Below are positions 4,970 through 16,410 of a DNA stretch of 64,000 nucleotides, one piece after another (within the stretch, counting starts at the first letter, position 1; every line of letters begins with the position of its first letter). The stretch lies in contig JAHLWZ010000843.1 in the NCBI GenBank assembly GCA_020536535.1, forward strand, positions 16,792-80,791. Direction: 5' to 3'. The position numbers were made by a program, and so were the translations under genes. The notes under the pieces were generated by a model, which ran no database searches, had not been told where the DNA came from, and was given only the letters and a program-made list of their open reading frames with translations. The stretch comes from Pelomyxa schiedti (taxonomy: Eukaryota > Protista > Evosea).

Positions 4970-7900
4970 CTACGACTGTAACATTTTGTTTACGATCCAG
5001 TCCAGTCCCTTTTTTCGGATGCAGTATATTAGAACATTACCAAATGAAAGGTGTGGAGATGAACCTCATATAGTCCATCACCAGAAGTAGCACAACAGGC
5101 CTGGACAAACCACTTCCTTGTCCTTATGTGGTGCAGACCAAGTTGGTCAGTTAGTTCGCCTACCGGCATGGCAGCCGGCAAATCTTGTTTGTTTGCAAAC
5201 ACAAGCACAACGGCATCGCGGAGTTCATCCTCGGACAGCATTTTCTGAAGCTCTTCGCTGGTTTCTCCTATGCGTTCCCTGTCATTCGAGTCTACAACGT
5301 ACATAAGACCCTGGGTGTTTTGGAAGTACTAATGAAAGTGAGTGAGAGAAAGAGTGTGAATGTTGGGGTTGTTTAGTGTAACCAAGTGAGTGTTCATACA
5401 TGTCTCCATAGGGGTCTAATTTTGTCTTCTATGGTGAATTAGTTGAGAACATAGTCAAAGTCGTATTGGAGCAAGTCAAGTTCTTACCGCCTCCAGTATC
5501 CCACACTGTAAGGTTGACGTTTTTGTAAGTTACTGTCTCAACATTGAATCCAATGGTAGGTACTACAATGAACAAAGTGCGTTAGAATCAAACCTGTTTT
5601 TGGCGCTCGGGATAGAACTTACTGGTGGTAACAATTTCACCAAGTTTAAGCTATCGAAGACTTAGGTGAGGGAAAATGATGATGTGGTCAACATACTTTA
5701 TACAGAATAGTCGTCTTTCCTGCAGCATCTAAACCTGAGGGTGAATTGAGCAAAGGAAACAGTTGAAGGTATGGTTTATAGGTACGCATACCAACCATCA
5801 ACAAGCGGAATTCTTTCCTTTTCGGTAACCATCCTTGAACAGTTGTGAACGTGACTGAGGCCGCTCGCTGAAGGAGTGAGGGCCTTCGAGCATCTTCTTC
5901 ATCCCGAGCTCTCAGTCTTTTAGCGAACTGGTGAGAGTGTGGCCAAATATGGAAGGAAGCTACGACCTTTCGTAATAAGTGTGAGTGACGGGATGGTTCA
6001 TAAGATATCGAAGTTTCCAGATCTCTTGCCCTGCCAAGCTGCTCGTTCCAGAGGCTCTGGTTTATGTTAAGTGGTATTTTTTTCACTTTGAGAATGTACA
6101 GGGTCTCTGGAATCAACGTTTTGGCAATTTTGCATATTCGTCGGTTTGGAGAACCAAGTTCCGTAGCCTCCCAGTCATAGGCGGGGGATACCCTCACATC
6201 CCTCAACGTCTTAGATTGAGCTGGGGAAAAAAAGGAATACCTGGTGTATAGCACCCTCCATAATTCATTTGAGGAAGAGAGAACTCTGAAAGCACTACTT
6301 GTCCGCCCTATGGATATGAGGTCCTAAAACTGGGATGAAAACTGGCAATGATCCATCAAAATTCAAACTTTGGCACTCAAGTACAGAAGAATCTCATGAA
6401 GAACTTCACGAGGAAAATTCTTGAGGGTTCCAAAGATAGATTGTTGCTCCTGAGATGGCTTATTCATCTGACTGGAACCACCTGATATTGCCGCTGTATG
6501 CAACCACCCACAAGAGACCTGAAAGTAGTTATTTGGGAAAATTGACGGAGTCCTGCATACCGCTTTAATATTCGTGTTAGACATCGTAAACGCTTCGACA
6601 AGCGTAGGTGCAATATACTCTTGTTTCAAAAATTGACCACACTGTCCATTTTTACTTGAACCAAAAGTGTATCTGTCTTTATGTTAAAAAGAAAATGAGA
6701 AACTGTTCTCAACTTGCATTTTTCCAGAACTTGTAACTATGGCACTATGTGCCGCACTAAATGCTCCATTTGCTGACATGGCGATAACTCTATCACCTCG
6801 TGTGCACAGTTCAACATTGAAGGAGTCAATAGGCCTGCAAAAATATGATTCCCAGTATTATCTTCCATCGCCCATACGTGGGAACCAGAATATTTTGATC
6901 GACGGTGTGGCCGCACTGGCTCCTTCTCCCCATTGATAACACTGTATTATGTAACCCCTCAGTACTTGAAGTTGGCACAGTAGCGAGCAGTGTGTGATTG
7001 TCACCACATGCCACAATTTCAATTGCTGGAGTCCCTGTTGGCAAAGGAACTGGTTGTGGAGTCGTTCTATCAATGACATCGCCAAGCCCAAGCTGGCCAA
7101 ACCTAAGAAAACGAGTGAGATCGTTAGCAGGAGATCGCTTTCGTACCTATTTGAACCACAAGTAAATACGGTACCAGTTTCCGTCATATATGCAACATGT
7201 TGACCACCGCAAGACACTTTCCTGATTGGTTGCGTGAGTTTAACTTGCTGGGGATTCTCTCTATCCTATTGGAAGAGTTATTAACAGAGAAACAAGATTT
7301 TATCCATACTTTTGTGTCACCCAACCCAAGCTGCCCTTTAGAATTAGTGCCCCATGAGAAAGCACTACCATCAGAACAGATAACTACAGAAAAGGCACCA
7401 CCAGCACTAATGTGAGAAGGTCTCGAAAGAGATTCCAGTGGAGTATGAAGTGCCTGCACCACAGTTGGTGCTAGTGACTTGCCACATATTTCACCCCACA
7501 TCCACACATCACAGACGGGAGAAGCTTCAAGTGCGAGGCAGTGCATGCCACCACAAGCAATTTCAGCAATTACGTGGCCGTACAATCTAATAAGAAATAA
7601 TTAAAATTCCCATGGAAGTTATATTGTCACATAAATAAGAGCCTAATACACACCCAACAACCGGGCGAGGGATTGGCTTCTCCTGACAAGCCCAAGGCGT
7701 TGCACCCACCATATTATTGGTAGTGGCAGTAGCAGTAGCAGCAGAATTTGTAGCAGCACCTTTAGGCGGTGCTCCCTTTGCTGGGGTAGCGCCCTTGGCT
7801 GTTGCAGGATTGGTTTTTGATGCAGTGACGGCGGAGGGATTTGGGGTGGGAGTGGATACAGGTGTAGTTGTTCCACTGCCGCCTCCGCAGGAGTATACTT

Positions 7901-8182
7901 CCCCTGTGGAAGACAGAATCAAGGTGACTGCACCACCACAGGAAACAGACTTAGCATTAACTCTGGAACCAAAAAGTGTAGCCACAAATGCTGGGCACTG
8001 TCTAAAAGCAAAAAAATGTTAATTTATTGTTTGCTTTTAAAAAAAGGCAAAACAAACATAGGTCCCTATGACCTTTCGATGGAATCACCGTGGCCAAGTT
8101 GGCCGTGGGAGGCAACGCCCCACGTGTAGACGAGGCCCGCCGGCATTATGGGAGCCGGACGAGATTCAGGTGCTGAAGTCAT
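4970..8182 (-). CDS. RCC1-repeat, F-box and C-terminal Arf GTPase fusion protein, multi-exon
   Basis: RCC1 blades ([62 protein letters not shown]); F-box [19 protein letters not shown]|[11 protein letters not shown]; Arf motifs [42 protein letters not shown]; stop TAG 4972-4970. Confidence 0.85.
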
Positions 8183-8390
8183 TATAGTGTGAGTCTCGGG
8201 GTCGACATTGGTGGCGAATTTGGTGGTTACCAGCATGCTTCGGTTACGGACTCACAGGTTTTAACCGGTAAACCGTTTTACACAGTGTGTCTCTGGACTT
8301 ATTGCAGAAAGGCTTTGCACAACCAGTATTGAGGGGTTGTTAGTAACACAAAGAGTCGCAAGTTCCCGGGGTAATCTGTGTCAGTACAGA

Positions 8391-11300
8391 ATGGAAAATC
8401 AGATTTGGGCGAATCCAGAACAAAACCCAAAATTACACGCCGCCACGGGGAAGAACGCAAAGAGGAAGAAGGCAGCCGCGAGGGCAGCTGCCGCAAACCG
8501 TGACGAATCCGACGAGAGTTCCTCTGACAACAGCGAAGCCCCAGAGGCCCCCGATTCCCCGAGGAGGGCCACGGGCAAGCCTGAGGACGACCCCGTCTCC
8601 TCCTCTGAGGAAAACGACCAACACGACGAAGGCGCGGGCGCCAGCGCGGCCGCCACCACGAGCAGGGGCAAGGGCGGGCGCGGGAAGAGCCGCGCGGCCC
8701 CCAAGCCCGCCGCGACCCGCACGGGCCCGGCGGCGGCTCCCCCTGCGCAGCCAGCCGCGGCGGCCCCCACTCCGGGCCGCAGGCAGGCACGCCCAGCGCG
8801 CAACCCCCAGCTGGCAGTGATCAGATTCCTGCGAGAGGAATGCAGCCGCCACAGGGCGGAGGCCAGCTCGAGCACCCCCACTGGGCCAAGTGCCACGACT
8901 GGTAGTACTGGTGCTGCTGCTGCTGCTGTTACGACCACTGCTAGTACGACGGCCACGAGCTGCGGGGGAGACGATTATGGGTGCGCGCGGGAGGCGCTTG
9001 AGAAGCTGCGGGAGAAGCACGGGGTGAGGGCCGCCGCCCATAATTCCCACCCGCAGCTGTTTGCCCTCAAGTACGTGCAGCACGAGTGCGCCCCTGAGAG
9101 ACTGGCGGACCTGAATGGCGTACCAGCTGGATGCAGGGGTCTGGTGCTGAGCCATTCGCGGAATTCCGGGGGTTGCGAGTGGGCCGTTGTTGCCAGGCCC
9201 TTTGACAAGTTTCTCAATTATGGGGAACCTTTGGTAATTGCATCTTTGTGTTGTTTCTGTTTAATCTCTTGCTGGTTCTGGTTTTATTTCTTTGGTATTC
9301 GAAAACCCTAAACAAAACAAAAAGGCTCCAGAGATGGATTGGGGTAAATGCAAGATATATGAAAAAATTGATGGAACTCTGTGCATTTTATACTTCTACA
9401 ATGGTGAATGGATAATGAGTACAGGCGGAAGTGCTGATGGAATGGGCCAAGTCAAGTCTGCTAGTGAGAACAATGGTCACCCAATTATTTCTGTCCCACC
9501 TTTTTTTTTAGGTACTTTGACTTTCTGTGATCTTTTTTGGAGAATATTTAAGAAAAGTGGTTACTCTACACCCTCATCACCAGAGGCAATTAATTACACT
9601 TTCATGTTTGAACTCGTCTCCCCTCTCAATCGGGTACTCATACCATATGACACTGAGGCTCTTTATCTACTTGGAGCTAGGTCGATTCAAACTGGTTCCG
9701 AACTCGATCCGGCGCAGGCAAGCAGATTAGCTGGTGTTCCCTACACATTGTGTCCACTGAGGGAAGGTCTATGCACCTACGAGCAGGTGATACATGCTCT
9801 TAGAATGTGTGACCCACTCAAGCATGAGGGGTTTGTAGCAGTTGATTACACACGTGGTATCAGGGTCAAAGTAAAACACCCTGCATATGTATGCATGCAT
9901 CATGCACTGGGTGACAAGCACTGGGGTGCTGATAGATTAATAGAGATTGTGAGAAGTGCTGAAGTGGGTGAAGTTCTGGCATACTTCCCTGAACTGAAAG
10001 GAAGGATTGAGGAAATGGCTGACATCTATTCTAAAATAGAGCAGAAAATGACAACAGAATGGGAAGCCTGCAAGTCTATAGATAGGAAGAAATTTCAGAT
10101 ATTTTTGTGCAATACTCCATTCCCTGATACTATGGAAGCACTACGAAGCGGGAAATGTACCTCAGTTCGTGATTTCCTTGCCAGTGTTGAGATAAAGAAA
10201 CTTCGAGAGATGTTTGGTATCTCTTCCGGGAAAGAAAAAGACAAAAGAAAACGAAATAAGCGGGGGAAGGCACAAGAGAACGAGACCAACTTGGAGAATG
10301 GAACAAGTGAAGCAAACGAGCCTCTCGATCGGCTCGAGGAAATACATCCTCAATATAGGATAGTCCATGGCTCAGAGGACTCTGTGGATCTCGACGTAGT
10401 TTACATTGTTGCAAATATGCCCTCAGTAGCTCAGTGTCACGCTTTTTGCAACGCAGGGGCAAGTTCAAGCCCAGTAGAAAACCGAAACATCGCAACCGTG
10501 TCAAATGGAGTCATATCAAAGTGTCTAAAGGGGCTACCAGATGAACTAAACAATGCCATTAGAAGAACTTTCAAGCTCCACGTAGAAAACAATTCCCTAG
10601 TGTGCCCAATTCTTAGGAATACAGGCAGAGATATCAATGGGAAAGCTAGAGTATCCCTGCAGTCCATCCTTGGGTTACTAATACACAACACAGATGCAGA
10701 AACTAGAGCAGGTAGGCATTTTCTGACACTTCTCAGAAATTAACTTGGAAAAGTAATCGAATCGGCTGTGAAAAGTGCCCTCCACTCGCAGGATATACAA
10801 TCCATGGCTAATGCACTTAAGACCATTACTCTTCAAGCAGTTATCCCTGTACTCGGAGTTGAAGAACGCAAGCGGATTGCCTTTCAGGTTGGACAACTAC
10901 TTGTAAGTTTCACTTGCATTCATTTTTAATTAATTTAAAACAGCTAGGCCTTGATTCAAAATGTCGAACTTTACACAAAGAAGGAAATCAGTGATTACTT
11001 CCCTGAAACTCGCCCATTGTTGTATCGAAAGCCGGTGCTATCTCCAGAAGAAAGTGACCTGTTCATCCAGTCGCTGTAAGTTCTTAATGGCATTTAATGA
11101 ATATTCACTCTACTAGTCTCCGATTATGTAATTCCATTTCATCTCGTAATACGACAGTTCCTCTGCAAATTCCTCCAGAATGCTTCGCCCTTCCCAAACC
11201 CATTGAGTCACTTTGTATATTTGACTTTGATGCCACCCTTTTTGCTTCTCCTTCTCCAAATCCCTCTCTGTGGACTGAGTCGAGCCTGCGAATCTTGAAC

Positions 11301-12499
11301 TCAACGTGGGTGTGTATCTGCTCACCTCATTTCAAGAAGGAATAACATTGTGAAGGAAGAAGGAGGCCTTAATTGGTTTGGTTCTGCTGAGTCATTAAAT
11401 CCTCCTTATGTACCGCAACTGGCTCCTGAGTCTTTTTGGACTGCCTCTCTTGTTTGTGCTCATGACTGTTTTTAATAATTCTAACACTACTTGAAAGGTC
11501 ACCAGATTTAAAGCGATCTCTGGGTTGACAGGAAAAGTCCTCCTCACTGGCCGCACACAAATGCACTCTGCACGACTCCTAGACCTCCTTTCACAACAAG
11601 GCCTTCAATTTGATTTGGTGATTGTGCGCGAGCTCCAACGCGCACCTGGTCACCAATCAGGCTTATCTGATTGCCTTCGCACAGTAATTGGGTCTTGGTG
11701 CATGCCCTCTCTTCGATTCAAACAGGAGGCAATTAAGCATCTGCTACAGGCCAATCCACATGTTCACACTATCGAGCTTTGGGATGATAATGAAGCACAG
11801 ATGACTGAAATAGCCAAGCACGCAACACTGTTTAGTTCACCAGGAACGACCACTTCTTCACACCTTGTGGTACCCCACAGAACGATTCTGTCCCAAACTG
11901 CGGAACGCGACCTCGTATCGCGACTAATTGCCAGTTCTCCTAACAAATTCTCGCTCCATGAAACTACCTCCTACGTTGCAGCCGTACTGAACCCAGCCAG
12001 CAAAGAGAGGTTACTTTCAGCCATAACCATTCCAGAAGGCTGGACAATTCATGCCACGCACATGACTATTCACCTCGGTCCCGTGCGAAACAAACCCTCA
12101 CGCGAATCCAAACCCAAAGCCAACCCCAAAGGTGCCAACAAAAAATCCGGCAAAACCTCAAAGGCAAACAAAAGGGGACCAGATAGCACAAATTCCGACG
12201 AAGAGGACAACAACAATTCCACTGAATCAGTGCACTACAAACTAGGAGAGCAAATGGAAATAATAGCTACTGCAGTGGGAAGAACAGCCAAGGCTCTTGC
12301 TGTCAAAGTGGAGGGAGTTCCAACAAGCAGGAGATTGTGTGACACCGGTGGGGTACCACACGTCACAATTGCAACTAACACTGCTGGAGGCAAGCCAAAG
12401 GACAGCAAGGAGATTCACGCGTGGGAACCTCTTGCCGCTCCCATAACCCTCACCGGCCTAGTCACCGCTGTGCAACAGTTAAGCCTCACAGCGACGTGA
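8391..12499 (+). CDS. Multidomain RNA repair protein: Rnl1-type RNA ligase, nucleotidyltransferase-like domain, HAD phosphatase, 2H phosphodiesterase
   Basis: Ligase: ARPFDKFLNYGE, motif I EKIDG (K at 9364), FELVSPLNRV, motif IV EGFV, motif V VKVK. GSEDSVDLDVV at 10369. HAD DFDATLF (11220), LTGR, ELWDD. 2H motifs HMT (12059) and HVT (12359). Short GT-AG introns join the ORF pieces. Confidence 0.85.
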
Positions 12500-12658: not shown

Positions 12659-13586
12659 ATGGGAAACGGACCGTCGAAAGCAGAGCTCGAGGAGCTTCAT
12701 AGACAGTTTGGAAGTACCTTTTCATAAGCCTCTTTGAAACAACAAAATTGCCCACCTTTCATACACATAACCGAAACCGTTTGCAAGTCGATTGAGAATT
12801 AAAACGCAACAACGATGCGGCCATTGACTCGACCCATAAGTTAGCATCGAGGACCTCAAGACACACGCCAAGGCGTTCAGAGAGGTCAATGGCGCGATGA
12901 CATTGGCAGACTTTAGGAGATTCTCAATGGAGTCGTCGACGCAGCTACCACCAGGAGTCATTGAGAAGATATTTTTCGCTTTTGACAGGAACAGAGACGG
13001 GTTTGTTTCTGCCACCCCCCCCTTTTTTTTCCCCTTTTGCTCATTGGGACCAAAAGGAGAATAGATGTCAGAGAGTATTTGATGATGATATCCTTAACTA
13101 GAGGAGGAACTCTTGGTAAGTCCAAATAATTGTTATAGCACAAAGTGTAACAGTGGGGGGGAAAAAAAAATTCCAGATGAGAAACTACAGGGTAAAAAAA
13201 TGTGCTGATGATACGTTCCATTCATTGTATTTCACAGCTTCATTTGATATCTTTGATTCCAACAGAGATGGGAAACTCGAGAAGTATGAAGTCCGAAGTC
13301 TACTTGAAGCCGCCAACGTCACAGTATCCTCCGCCCCTTAATTCCTTCTCTACTTAATGAATATTAGTATGCCGGTTCTATAAGCCTTGGACTTACGCCA
13401 CAGATGGAAGCTCACGTAAATGATCTTGTTGAACAAACCTTTGAATTGTCAGATACCAATCATGTAGGTGATTCCATAATTTTTTTCAATTCCAACATGA
13501 AACAGGACGGTTTTATTGATAGGGAAGAATTTGTCCACGCCTTCAAGACACACCCCAAAGTACTTGAATTTTTCAAGCAGTTATGA
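12659..13586 (+). CDS. Neuronal calcium sensor/calcineurin B-like EF-hand protein with probable N-myristoylation
   Basis: Starts MGNGPSK (MGxxxS/K); EF loops FDRNRDG..DVREY, FDSNRDGKLEKYEV and DTNH|DGFIDREEF. Confidence 0.85.
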
Positions 13587-13679: not shown

Positions 13680-16256
13680 CACTCAAGACTTCCATGTTCG
13701 GAGGTTGGTCGTGTCTTGTGAAATGTTCCTTAGGCTCTGTGCCACTATCGAATTTCACTTTGTGGCTCTTCTTAGAATATAATGACGATTTTAATTCATG
13801 CTAAGTTTTGGATTGTACACAATAGGGAAAGAAGCCAACCAGTCTGCCTTTGTGGGGATGTCAGCTCTTTTTTCTCTGGGCTGTGTCTGTTTGGTTTTGT
13901 CTGGGGGAGGTGGTTTGTAGGGAGGGTGTTGTTGATGGGGTTGGGGTAGCGGCTGTTGGGTTCGGCAAGGCCGGTGAGGGTGCTGCTGGGACGGTGGAGG
14001 GAGTGGCAGACGAGGGAGAGGATGTGGATGGTGTGCTTTGTTTTTGGAAGCAGCTGTCGCAAACCCGCTGCTTGAAGGTCTCCGAGGGAAGCATCAATTT
14101 GCTTTTGGAACATCCACCACATACGACTTTCCCACATAGCCTGCAGTGGTGCTGTTTTCCGCGATGTAAGGGAAAGAACATGAAGAGAATGTGGAACATG
14201 CCCTTCTATTGAGTATGCCAAAGTCAGTATCACATATCACGCAGTTACGTGTTTCCCCGTCGGGCTGATAGCGGTTTCTTCTTGTAAAAACGGAGAGGGG
14301 TTACTAACCTGCCACACAGGGGCCTCAAAAGACGACCCCTGATCGTTTGCTGGCTCCGCAATAACAGTGCCAGAACTGTCTTTTATAAATCGTTTCTTTT
14401 TAGATTTGATCTTTTCATTCTTGAGTTAATGTAAATTCTAATGATTCTGTACAAACATCTTTCACAGCGTTTTGGAGGTCCGTAACCCAGGAGTTTTTCT
14501 CTTCAGGGGTTTCTGTATAGGCAACAAATGATTTCTTTGCTGAGGCAATCTTGTGGACCATCAGCAAGGCACTGTCTGTGTGGGAGTACAGACCGAAAAA
14601 GCGTTTTGCAGTTTATCAGTATCAGCAATATCTTCGATATGCTTTACTTCCTCGAGTTGTAGAACTACTTGTCTTCCACCGTCATATATCAGAATATCAT
14701 TAAACAGGAAGAAGGTCCGTTTTTTGTCTGTTTTGCGGCACCTCTTCCATATTTGGCCTTCTCGTAAAAACACCCGATGTGGTTCCACAAGCTAGTAAAA
14801 TAAGTTTACTTTACATCACCAAAATTGTGATGACGCACATTGAACCCAGAGAGAGGAGAACTGAGTTTCTGTTGAATTTCAAGTAATTTGCGGCCATTTT
14901 CTTGTAGCCGGATAGAGTCATTGACCTGAGCTGCTACTTCTTTGAGTTTGTTAGTCGCACCCACGAGATTGCCATAGTCTGGGTGAGTTGGGGGGGTATG
15001 GGAGACAAAATCCTATGCATTTTGGTTGGAAAGCGTTCCAAATTAAGAAGGGAAGATAAACCAGACACCTCAAGTAGAAGTTTATATCTGGGCAGTCGTT
15101 GTACTGGCAAAATCAAAAAAGAGGGTAAATTAAGGCCTTTGCATTTCGGTTCAGTGAGCTTATCCTTACAAAATGAGTTTTTTTGGGGGAAACTCGGTTG
15201 CTGGTACTTGGAGAAATTTGGTAAAAAAGACATTTTTCTCTAAATCGTCCAGAGTGGAAAAGCAGTTATTGTAATTGCATGCATAAGTACTGTATAACTT
15301 CAGGAAGGGAATCTGACAAAGAAAGTAAACACTAATTAGATGAGTGTTAGGAAATACAAATTCAAGGAATTTGTCCCCAATTAAAGTTGTGGGTGTCCAT
15401 TCGTCCATCCTTTCCTCCAACCCAGCCAATAACAAGCAATTTAACTTACAAATAAAAGTTAGAAAATAAGTACAACTCTGAAGCAAGTCACCTGCCAAAT
15501 TTCTTGTATATTAGAGAATAAGGCATAAAGTTTGTCTGGAGGTATCTGATCAGATTTCATCAGTGGCTTGAGAAACACCTTCTCAACTATTAGCAGATAA
15601 GTTGGCACATATTAAAATGCAAACCTCTACGCAAACGTGTATCTGCTCAACATATGTCCTCTCAGTGGTAAGTATTTCTTTTGCAATGTGGTTTCGCTTG
15701 TCGTCCGGGGTGCTGTTTTTGTTAGTCACTGCTGCAGAAACCGGTTTTAGCTCTTCGTGGATCGGGTGTTGGGGCTTAAACAGCATTGTATTCCGGCTAT
15801 ACATGCTATTGCGTGGAAGTGATGTTGTCCCAAGAACAGACTTTCTGACCTGAAATAAAATGAACAAGTGGAGATTGTGGGCGATTGGCGTACGTCGGCC
15901 CCACTGTTCGCAGAGTTTGCGCTGGTGCCATTGGCCGTTTGCCCACCGTTACTTCCGGGGGTTGTTCCGGAAGCGTATAGCCCCTGATGGGGCAGTGAGG
16001 TTGCCTTTGGCAAAAACCCTGATGTGTTTGGTAGAGGTACAACAGGACCAGTAACGGCCGATTTGCTGCGTGTCAGCTTAGCACTAGCAGATGTATTGGT
16101 GTTGGCGTTTGTGTTTGTGTTAGCGCCGTTTGCTGTGGTTGAAGACTGGGAGAGATTCGAAGAAGTGCTCGTAGCGGCACCACTAGCCGGCACACTGGCA
16201 CGTTGCACAGATCCCGAAGCACCAAGAGACGATGACGACGACGTTTTGTGCAGCAT
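13680..16256 (-). CDS. FGD-like RhoGEF (DH-PH-FYVE); 3' end approximate
   Basis: DH: KRNHIAKEILTTERTYV, PFLKLYSTY, LILPVQRLPRYKLLL; PH: FLREGQIWKRCRK..FFLFNDILIY; FYVE: HHCRLCGKVVCGGCS..RVCDSC. Confidence 0.9.
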
Positions 16257-16410
16257 GCTGCACCCAACACCACTCGGTTTGTTTTATTAATGTTTATGGG
16301 CAGTGAGATCTCTTTCCCTTCTTTCAGGACAATCATGCCACACAAAAACCCAGTTTCACGAAACTCTGAAAGTAAACGATTTTTTTGGCAGGTGTTGCCT
16401 GCCAGTTGAG

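Follow-up and report, generated by a model that had tools for sequence, protein, structure and literature searches.

A family of predicted Pol-beta-fold domains tied to Rnl1-type RNA ligases, found inside a multidomain RNA repair protein of Pelomyxa schiedti

The domain that we describe here lies in a 1249-residue protein encoded on the forward (+) strand of a 64,000-nucleotide stretch of Pelomyxa schiedti DNA (contig JAHLWZ010000843.1; this whole stretch is called the window hereafter). The product predicted from the DNA is identical, letter for letter, to the database protein P0001, which bears the NCBI name '2'-5' RNA ligase [Pelomyxa schiedti]', and its domain order is Rnl1 ligase, nucleotidyltransferase (NTase)-like domain (residues 609-830), HAD phosphatase and probable 2H phosphodiesterase. 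The original prediction, made from the letters of the DNA, had seen in the second of these domains an orphan NTase of the Pol-beta superfamily with a role in RNA end processing. It is now well supported that this domain represents a real, unannotated family, without a model in Pfam, NCBIfam or PHROGs. According to its predicted model it very probably has the Pol-beta nucleotidyltransferase fold, of which it is a non-canonical variant and not a canonical member, and the family very probably works in Rnl1-type RNA repair. Its firm partner is the Rnl1 ligase, and not the HAD or cyclic phosphodiesterase (CPDase) domains. The features of the domain are the following.

10354-11147, + strand: unnamed, predicted Pol-beta-fold domain, residues 609-830, spanning three introns, delimited by the family profile
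Residues of about 609-700 and 700-830 of P0001, + strand: alpha/beta core and four-helix part, respectively, of the predicted model
10366-10395, + strand: nucleotide-binding loop and predicted metal-binding DxD, H-G614-S615-x-D617-S618-x-D620-x-D622
10480-10488, + strand: N651-x-N653 of strand 3, N653 being the likely occupant of the third-carboxylate position
10531-10581, + strand: family signature G668-x-x-D671-E672-x-N-N675...T680...H684, from alignment conservation
10712-10753, + strand: 42-nt GT-AG intron within the domain, skipped in one RNA contig (run X1)
10870-11028, + strand: motifs KxxAFQxGQ, ExYTK and R804 of the helical part, interrupted by the intron 10903-10947

With the 123-residue exon part of the domain as query, the search among 1.84 billion gave 292 cluster representatives with E<=1e-3, of which 83 had E<=1e-10, so that the resemblance is not due to chance; 150 of the 292 were listed, and 197 proteins were used for the analysis of domain order. 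A stand-alone relative used as query matched 47 proteins among 391 candidates. The typical member is a single-domain protein of about 240 residues, and sequence identity across the family is about 26-42%. Named members come from Thomasclavelia cocleata, Bacillus phage G (gp208), Lak megaphages, Thecamonas trahens, Willaertia magna, Arcella intermedia and a Myxococcota bacterium. Among phage records the family is present in 19 of 50,697, all of 440-636 kb, and Foldseek added four viral structural relatives (TM score 0.66-0.78, 15-18% identity), three of them named from Klosneuvirus, Indivirus and Terrestrivirus; the bacterial and giant-virus relatives suggested in the original prediction do exist. 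The family is absent from the 72,556 plasmids searched, and in 400 genomes sampled from the phylum of genome G002 it was found in the centre genome only.

An alignment of 120 rows was built from the P. schiedti domain and 119 near-full-length relatives picked from the 197 proteins. When these rows were scanned against Pfam, PHROGs and NCBIfam, no family covered the domain; the commonest weak match, Pfam SopE_N (11 of 120 rows, best E 0.002), was treated as noise. No Pfam family falls between the ligase and the HAD domain of P0001, a profile search of PDB sequences gave no match to the domain, and PADLOC 2023 left it unmatched in the 19 proteins scanned, four of which carry it. A profile search for longer fusions, in which 7997 candidates were scored, recovered no protein but P0001 and is uninformative, since the search with the exon part had already yielded several. 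We found no published description of the family; the 2016 RNA-repair survey or the supplement of PMC7824862 may already mention the domain.

A tandem paralogue of about 256 residues, named X', adjoins the main gene at 17 loci of Bacteroidota and forms a clade of its own (L012, L013, L017, L020, L025, L027, L029, L033, L034, L037, L040, L041, L043, L044, L051, L053 and L057; for instance L017:5206-5973). It keeps GS-x4-DxD and D671, while N653, G668, E672, K705 and Q772 are replaced (motif KSWIDSLNN). It is possibly a partner subunit or a protein of different specificity.

The fold assignment is strong, though predicted, because three methods agree and the DxD lies on the expected strand. The AlphaFold2 model (predicted local distance difference test, pLDDT, 93.2; predicted TM score, pTM, 0.87) begins with strand 1 and the GS loop; strand 2, which carries the DxD, comes next, and then a helix, strands 3 and 4, a second helix and a helical lobe. 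In a Foldseek search of the PDB, ANT(9)/AadA adenylyltransferases fill the top 11 rows, with an E of 7e-3 at best, so that no row reaches 1e-3. VIA, run on 48,161 chains, placed ANT(9) first (Z 9.1, root-mean-square deviation (rmsd) 4.8, 183 residues aligned), with HalB at Z 8.7 (rmsd 4.7, 165 aligned) and AAD(9) at Z 7.5; these three align over both lobes and are followed by short helical matches with Z of 6.6 or less. When VIA was applied to the Foldseek top 1000, the first 17 rows were all Pol-beta NTases, the best with Z 9.6, rmsd 4.4 and 184 residues aligned; for models lacking a clear Foldseek match, the best Z is typically 7-8 by the tool's own account. The N-terminal 100 residues were also modelled separately to exclude a purely helical resemblance. 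Folded alone (pLDDT 88), they gave nine NTases (ANT, MntA/MNT and HalB) among the VIA top 10, with Z from 6.3 to 3.7, and in Foldseek weak rows only, headed by MntA-HEPN entries and AAD(9). In the ESM Atlas the Pelomyxa segment had no usable match, but a bacterial member did: its features fell with NTP_transf_2/Polbeta clusters (0.94-0.95), the ten best named matches shared one family or clan, and one matching cluster without a common Pfam family bears the automatic name nucleotidyltransferase. A Pol-beta-like predicted fold and the conservation of GS and DxD, on which the original prediction had staked its case, are thus borne out.

Kuchta et al. (2009, PMC2794190) define the Pol-beta superfamily by an hG[GS] that opens a short helix and by two carboxylate motifs, [DE]h[DE]h in strand 2 and h[DE]h in strand 3. 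The first motif is found as H/F-G-S behind strand E9-13 (G614 in 120 of 120 rows, S615 in 119), the second as D620 and D622 (119 of 120 each) on strand E21-27 of the model, with D617 in 112 rows and S618 in 119. An overall alpha/beta core resembling that of solved members is likewise present in the predicted model, at modest scores, NTases heading every structural list (Z 9.6 for the whole domain, 6.3 for the core alone). The short helix starting at hG[GS] is not found, this segment being coil in both predicted models. The unusually short spacing from GS to DxD, previously noticed in the P. schiedti protein, proves to be family-wide: it is four residues in all 292 sequences that match the pattern, out of 302 pooled. 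Strand 3 (E50-58 of the model) reads E-N-R-N-I, with N653 in 118 of 120 rows, E650 in 82 and N651 replaced by D in 9. N653 stands just where the third Asp is usually found, ahead of a run of hydrophobic residues, and this Asn likely replaces the third carboxylate, the register being set by the secondary-structure pattern and not by residue-level superposition. The Pol-beta signature claimed from the DNA therefore holds for GS and DxD, but the site strays further from the consensus than had been supposed.

After strand 4 comes the family-specific G668-x-x-D671-E672-x-N-N675, in which G668, E672 and N675 are found in 120 of 120 rows and D671 in 117, H684 being again invariant (120 of 120). D671 and E672 are likely candidates for relocated catalytic acids that would supply the missing one, and D671 is the best of the two because it is kept in 17 of 17 X' paralogues, which have lost both E672 and N653. 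In the helical part K767 (119 of 120), Q772 (117), E784 (119), K788 (120) and R804 (118) are conserved, and K705 is near-invariant; the conserved basic residues of this part likely bind RNA or a triphosphate. All these frequencies are biased upward, since the loci were found by motif-derived patterns and the proteins by scoring the P. schiedti exon.

The tie to Rnl1 is seen both within single chains and between adjacent genes. Among the 197 proteins an intact ligase precedes the domain in 6 and follows it in 8, and ligase remnants are found in 2 more and in 8 weak cases, nearly all of them without the KxDG lysine; among 73 longer or representative proteins scanned, an NT5C-type HAD domain was detected in 7 and a kinase in 1. 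The ligase-first proteins, including those of Pelomyxa and Thecamonas, form one group (Shimodaira-Hasegawa-like approximate likelihood ratio test 99 in one tree; 98/98 in another), and the ligase-last proteins group at 87/92. Domain order alone suggests two separate fusion events; an approximately unbiased test on 38 chosen rows, with P0131 omitted, did not reject the joining of the two groups (p 0.249). The core motifs of the domain persist where the fused ligase has lost its KxDG lysine, yet E672 is changed to A or Q in 5 of 14 such proteins. Of this decayed type are P0127 (Willaertia), P0140 (Arcella), P0105, P0155 and P0177, in which the domain is followed by an Rnl1 remnant without the lysine, some having an N-terminal NT5C-type HAD domain. 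P0052 (899 residues) falls in the ligase-first group though no ligase domain was detected in it; there the domain is followed by two repeats starting GVDIGG and GIDIGG, HAD-like by eye and without a Pfam family. The original prediction had built its functional argument on a fusion to ligase, HAD and CPDase; of these, the Rnl1 ligase recurs, while HAD_SAK and 2H stand alongside the domain only in the P. schiedti protein among those examined, and the CPDase is unconfirmed by profiles.

Gene neighbourhoods were drawn from 58 genome loci (56 with a called gene, some contigs being short) and 32 viral loci; open reading frames (ORFs) were called, neighbours were clustered, and cluster representatives rather than each member were annotated. 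Of the 56 prokaryotic-genome loci, 38 have an Rnl1 gene at a distance of 6 kb or less, and in 36 it is no more than two ORFs away, so the link to RNA repair drawn earlier from the fusion is upheld in prokaryotes. All 25 Flavobacterium loci have it; elsewhere it occurs in Tenacibaculum, Saprospirales, Chitinophagales, Emticicia, Taibaiella, four Bacillota and Limnohabitans, among others, the linked loci spanning Bacteroidota, Bacillota and one member of Pseudomonadota, and some of the partner ligases share only 22-24% identity. Other recurring genes of these islands are PNK, Hen1, Pnkp ligase, RlaP, TROVE, Thg1, TatD and WYL, and no RtcB cluster is found among the recurrent neighbours annotated. 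Of 251 Flavobacterium genomes, 8 have the family, 10 have an Rnl1 over the cut-off and 7 have both, adjacent to each other; with the centre genome excluded, Rnl1 is present in 6 of 7 carriers against 3 of 243 non-carriers (Fisher 2e-9). RlaP is found in 26 of the 251 genomes, 5 of the 26 also with Rnl1. A displacement of RlaP by the family was considered and rejected, as the two co-occur above chance (4 of 7 against 21 of 243).

Several other genes of the islands are recorded here. A conserved 746-residue protein, without a Pfam match except for a weak Prok-RING_4 in one case, is encoded directly upstream in 21 loci (for instance L027:2363-4600), and beyond it there is usually a divergent gene for 204 residues and a WYL regulator. 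A Taibaiella island (L049:5971-11805) carries this family, two RlaP genes and two MNT-like families together with Rnl1, PNK, Hen1, TROVE and an RNase T-like gene. Two small NTase families share the islands, one at L059:5327-6001, L049:9529-10278, L001, L042, L071 and L072, the other at L086:5411-6061, L049:10278-10928, L039 and L082; both have the canonical GS-DxD spacing (in the first case judged from an alignment) and only weak NTP_transf_2/Polbeta matches. Profile-profile comparison of our family with one other island NTase family, a small template, gave a probability of 2.0%. Four 'genome' loci (L001, L042, L052 and L055) are dense in short or phage-like ORFs and have doubtful taxon labels; they may be phage contigs binned with prokaryotic metagenome-assembled genomes.

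The gene itself is compact, intron-rich and eukaryotic in structure. Its features are given below.

8391-12499, + strand: whole gene, 8 exons, 1249-residue product, the GT-AG junctions having been picked to preserve the frame
8391-9233, 9325-9463, 9512-10711, 10754-10902, 10948-11075, 11117-11309, 11356-11451 and 11498-12499, + strand: exons
9111-10104, + strand: T4 Rnl1-type RNA ligase domain (PF09511, 43.1 bits against a cut-off of 28.3)
11223-11935, + strand: HAD phosphatase of the Swiss-Army-Knife type, with DFDAT, LLTGR and WDDN (PF10307, HAD_SAK_1, 62.2 bits against a cut-off of 25.6)
11972-12496, + strand: probable 2H cyclic phosphodiesterase, with HMT at 12059, HVT at 12359 and a Lys-rich insert

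The ligase motifs EKIDG (K295, at 9364), FELV, EGFV and KVK are all there, a profile match covers residues 241-525, and TIGR02308 matches at E 6e-12, under its own cut-off. The uninterrupted frame 9265-10743 holds the C-terminal part of the ligase and the first 119 residues of the NTase-like domain, so the fusion of the two is independent of any splice call. One RNA contig, covering 10278-10838, skips the intron 10712-10753; the RNA comes from a single study as contigs only, and the remaining introns are without RNA cover. The motifs quoted in the original prediction are in frame on the + strand: IVHGSEDSVDLDVVYIV at 10360-10410, KGLPDELNN at 10528-10554, ENRNIA at 10477-10494, KRIAFQVGQLL at 10870-10902 and ELYTK at 10966-10980. 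Its splice had to be corrected, the GT-AG intron 10903-10947 joining QLL to ALIQ where GLIQ had been read, and its segment 10340-11075 does contain the domain but stops about 70 nt short of the end of the family profile on the right. The 2H domain has its HxT motifs at residues 1104 (HMT) and 1204 (HVT), and profile searches gave it no confirming match; beyond these two motifs the 2H assignment follows the NCBI name. No kinase domain was found in the 1249-residue chain, whose sole GxxxxGK[ST] sits in the low-complexity N-terminus, nor was a separate kinase gene detected with one strict P-loop pattern in the 64-kb window.

The low-complexity N-terminus is encoded at 8391-8990, and linkers rich in Lys and Arg at 10225-10270 and 12090-12215; a similar basic linker separates ligase from NTase-like domain in P0051, P0053, P0072 and P0178, and an RNA-binding or nuclear-localisation role of these linkers is possible. 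Other runs of the same RNA study differ at 10302, 11181, 12178, 12295, 12316 and 12431, with a 3-nt insertion behind 12178, and the differences at those six positions are likely alleles or strains. The flanking genes, judged by eye, are presumably an RCC1-repeat/Arf-like GTPase (5029-8251, - strand), an EF-hand calcium sensor (12660-13586, + strand) and a RhoGEF-PH-FYVE protein (13861-16283, - strand), and among them no clustered repair gene was recognised.

What could such a domain do beside an RNA ligase? The ends sealed by Rnl1-type ligases are a 3'-OH and a 5'-phosphate, and it is the task of HAD and 2H domains to clean the 3' end beforehand (PMC7824862). RlaP adds one or two nucleoside monophosphates (NMP) to an RNA 3'-OH, prefers the broken anticodon end and works best with Mn or Co; when T4 Rnl1 follows, the aminoacylation of a tRNA lacking one nucleotide is partly restored, and its authors point out that a product ending in 3'-OH is fit for ligases that use a 5'-phosphate, not for RtcB (PMC12776372). 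The two-lobed NTase architecture, the conserved basic residues, the Rnl1 tie and the fusion upstream of 3'-end healing domains make an RlaP-like step the simplest reading, and by this analogy we put at about even chances that, ahead of sealing by the ligase, the domain extends a broken tRNA at its 3'-OH by one or a few nucleotides taken from nucleoside triphosphates (NTP). The 2H domain would open the 2',3'-cyclic phosphate, the HAD domain would then take off the remaining phosphate, and the NTase-like domain would refill a nucleotide that an exonuclease or an excising ribotoxin had taken away; after phosphorylation of the 5' end by a separate kinase, the ligase would join the two ends. D620 and D622 would hold the metal of the NTP, and D671/E672 would likely provide the missing acid. 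Substrate, direction and metal ligands are those that we infer for the family. The other function once suggested for the domain was an activation of ends. That it should thereby stand in for a kinase is unlikely, a kinase-family gene being present in 37 of the loci; kinase replacement was rejected in view of these PNK neighbours.

A number of observations weigh against nucleotide addition as proposed here, or against the evidence on which it is built. The fold scores are modest (rmsd 4.4-4.9), two canonical features of the active site, the helix after GS and the third acid, are altered, and the enzymes of the nearest solved structures adenylylate antibiotics (ANT) or proteins (MntA) or synthesise protein-primed oligo-dA (HalB), none of them working on RNA ends. 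The Pelomyxa copy lacks three Arg of the family (R708V, R711Q, R730E) and Q686 while keeping all core residues; R708, R711 and Q686 are eroded throughout the ligase-first clade. Outside Flavobacterium, Rnl1 is found in just 13 of 31 loci, and the Flavobacterium counts represent one shared island and are not independent. The phage link is weak, with Rnl1 in 3 of 32 viral loci and any repair gene in 14 of 32 (duplicates included); around gp208 of phage G the only annotated repair gene is a poly(A) polymerase at a distance of 4.6 kb. The proposed job is already done by RlaP, and RlaP is present in 5 of 8 Flavobacterium carriers, and the five Pol-beta-type genes of one Taibaiella locus suggest distinct jobs. 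The coexistence with RlaP, these five NTase-type genes in a single island and the altered site together leave room for a different step.

One form of such a step, to which we give tentative and clearly minority credence, is that a rebuilt active site, with the helix deleted and the third acid moved to the GxxDE helix cap, serves ATP-dependent RNA ligases by a reaction absent from known repair enzymes, either the stripping of AMP from dead-end adenylylated RNA (AppRNA) or the marking of the junction so that it is not cleaved again; the family so rebuilt would be common to the repair islands of Bacteroidota, to megaphages, to giant viruses and to an ancient ligase fusion shared by Amoebozoa and Apusozoa, which we hold equally tentatively as part of the same reading. 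Taken by itself, a clean-up of the ligase, in which NTase chemistry run in reverse removes or recycles AMP from the dead-end AppRNA of abortive Rnl1 reactions, is unlikely. It would explain why the family keeps specifically to a ligase that adenylylates (Rnl1 is present in 7 of 8 Flavobacterium carriers of the family against 5 of 26 RlaP carriers), the coexistence with RlaP, the altered site and the lack of an RtcB cluster among the recurrent annotated neighbours; the core motifs are nevertheless retained beside dead fused ligases and in phage loci without a ligase within 6 kb, and we know of no RNA-deadenylating Pol-beta enzyme.

MntA adenylylates proteins, and the matches of the N-terminal core to MntA/MNT structures (Z 5.6, 5.0 and 4.5), of GlnE (Z 5.5) and of DrrA (Z 5.1) in VIA would suit a protein AMPylase like the MNT antitoxins or GlnE, which would modify either an invading ribotoxin or, to switch them, the ligase or kinase. 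In L024 the second gene upstream is of the HEPN_AbiV type, and L028 has a relative of it, but a toxin neighbour recurring across lineages was not found at the loci, the many conserved Lys and Arg of the helical part fit a polyanion, and a domain built into a heal-and-seal polypeptide would be expected to act on the RNA that its companions treat; we consider this quite unlikely. Protection of the junction, by a nucleotide or AMP placed at the 2'-OH or 3' end to stop re-cleavage of the repaired tRNA, as an analogue of Hen1 methylation, is improbable: the closest folds do pass AMP to sugar hydroxyls, and Hen1 is not seen within 6 kb in L014, L017, L025, L030, L034 and L057, yet Hen1 and the family gene stand together in many islands and we are aware of no precedent. 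Equally doubtful is a module that merely binds RNA or the ligase, without catalysis, its NTase fold being a relic. For it speak the missing helix after GS, the likely missing third acid, the loss of E672, N653 and K705 in X' (17 loci) and the existence of inactive NTase-fold families (PMC2794190). Against it, GS, DxD, D671, N675, H684 and K788 hardly vary although identity is only about 26-42%, as is typical of a catalytic centre, and this near-invariant core is present in all 7 proteins of the ligase-first clade.

RNA-repair kits are a front line of the conflicts between phages and hosts and between microbes. RlaP is the sole ligase-associated NTase family for which we found biochemistry, and it was characterised only in a late-2025 preprint. 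The present study adds a second, unannotated ligase-associated family, whose association with Rnl1 is unusually specific and whose active site differs in two respects from the Pol-beta consensus; with it, modules of this kind are also found in microbial eukaryotes and giant viruses. Stand-alone versions of 240 residues exist in culturable Flavobacterium and in Bacillus phage G (gp208), so that the reaction is directly testable. Does the family merely duplicate RlaP? If so, this study provides a useful annotation; if a different step is true, it would reveal a new reaction in RNA repair.

Among known systems, the ANT(9)/AadA enzymes (7uy4, 6xxq, 5g4a) are the best structural match over the whole domain (Z 9.0-9.6, rmsd 4.1-4.7, 176-184 residues aligned) and are also two-lobed, but identity is 8-12%, no PDB sequence matches, and the family sits among repair genes and not in a resistance context, with no plasmid match. 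HalB (9dbh) of Hailong, a two-gene system whose membrane effector is HalA, likewise aligns over both lobes with Z 8.7 and is a template-independent NTase acting in phage conflict. It makes tyrosine-primed oligo-dA for a membrane channel (PMC13434031); identity to it is 9%, and the recurring neighbours of our family are repair enzymes. In RFH-RtcB operons an uncharacterised non-RlaP Pol-beta NTase has been proposed to do the job of RlaP (PMC6514570). Compared by description only, that protein is tied to RFH and RtcB whereas our family is tied to Rnl1 and PNK, and the two are unlikely to be identical. Fungal and plant Trl1 and the 'Swiss Army Knife' repair proteins unite a ligase and end-healing domains in one chain, as does the P. 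schiedti protein, which has no kinase domain and carries a HAD and an NTase-fold domain instead; such multidomain RNA repair proteins were reportedly described by Burroughs and Aravind in 2016.

The best functional model is RlaP, which shares with the family an NTase domain with a C-terminal helical domain in about 240-250 residues, a presence in jumbo phages, a frequent tandem pair and a gene adjoining RNA ligases. The differences are in the sequence and in the company kept. PF10127 is not among the matches listed (25 of 47 families, E<=1) for the 120 members, P0001-P0004 being unmatched; hhalign gave a probability of 0.76% against a small template, an alignment of 10 RlaP sequences; and PfRlaP is not among the structural matches listed, in a library that may not contain it. 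RlaP has 10 residues from GS to DxD (G27 S28...D39 D41) and an invariant third Asp, D72, where the family has four residues and an Asn, and the GxxDExNN motif was not seen in RlaP. In Flavobacterium, RlaP occurs mostly without Rnl1 (5 of 26 with it), the family mostly with it (7 of 8). In conclusion, the family resembles RlaP by its context and, as judged by sequence, is not RlaP.

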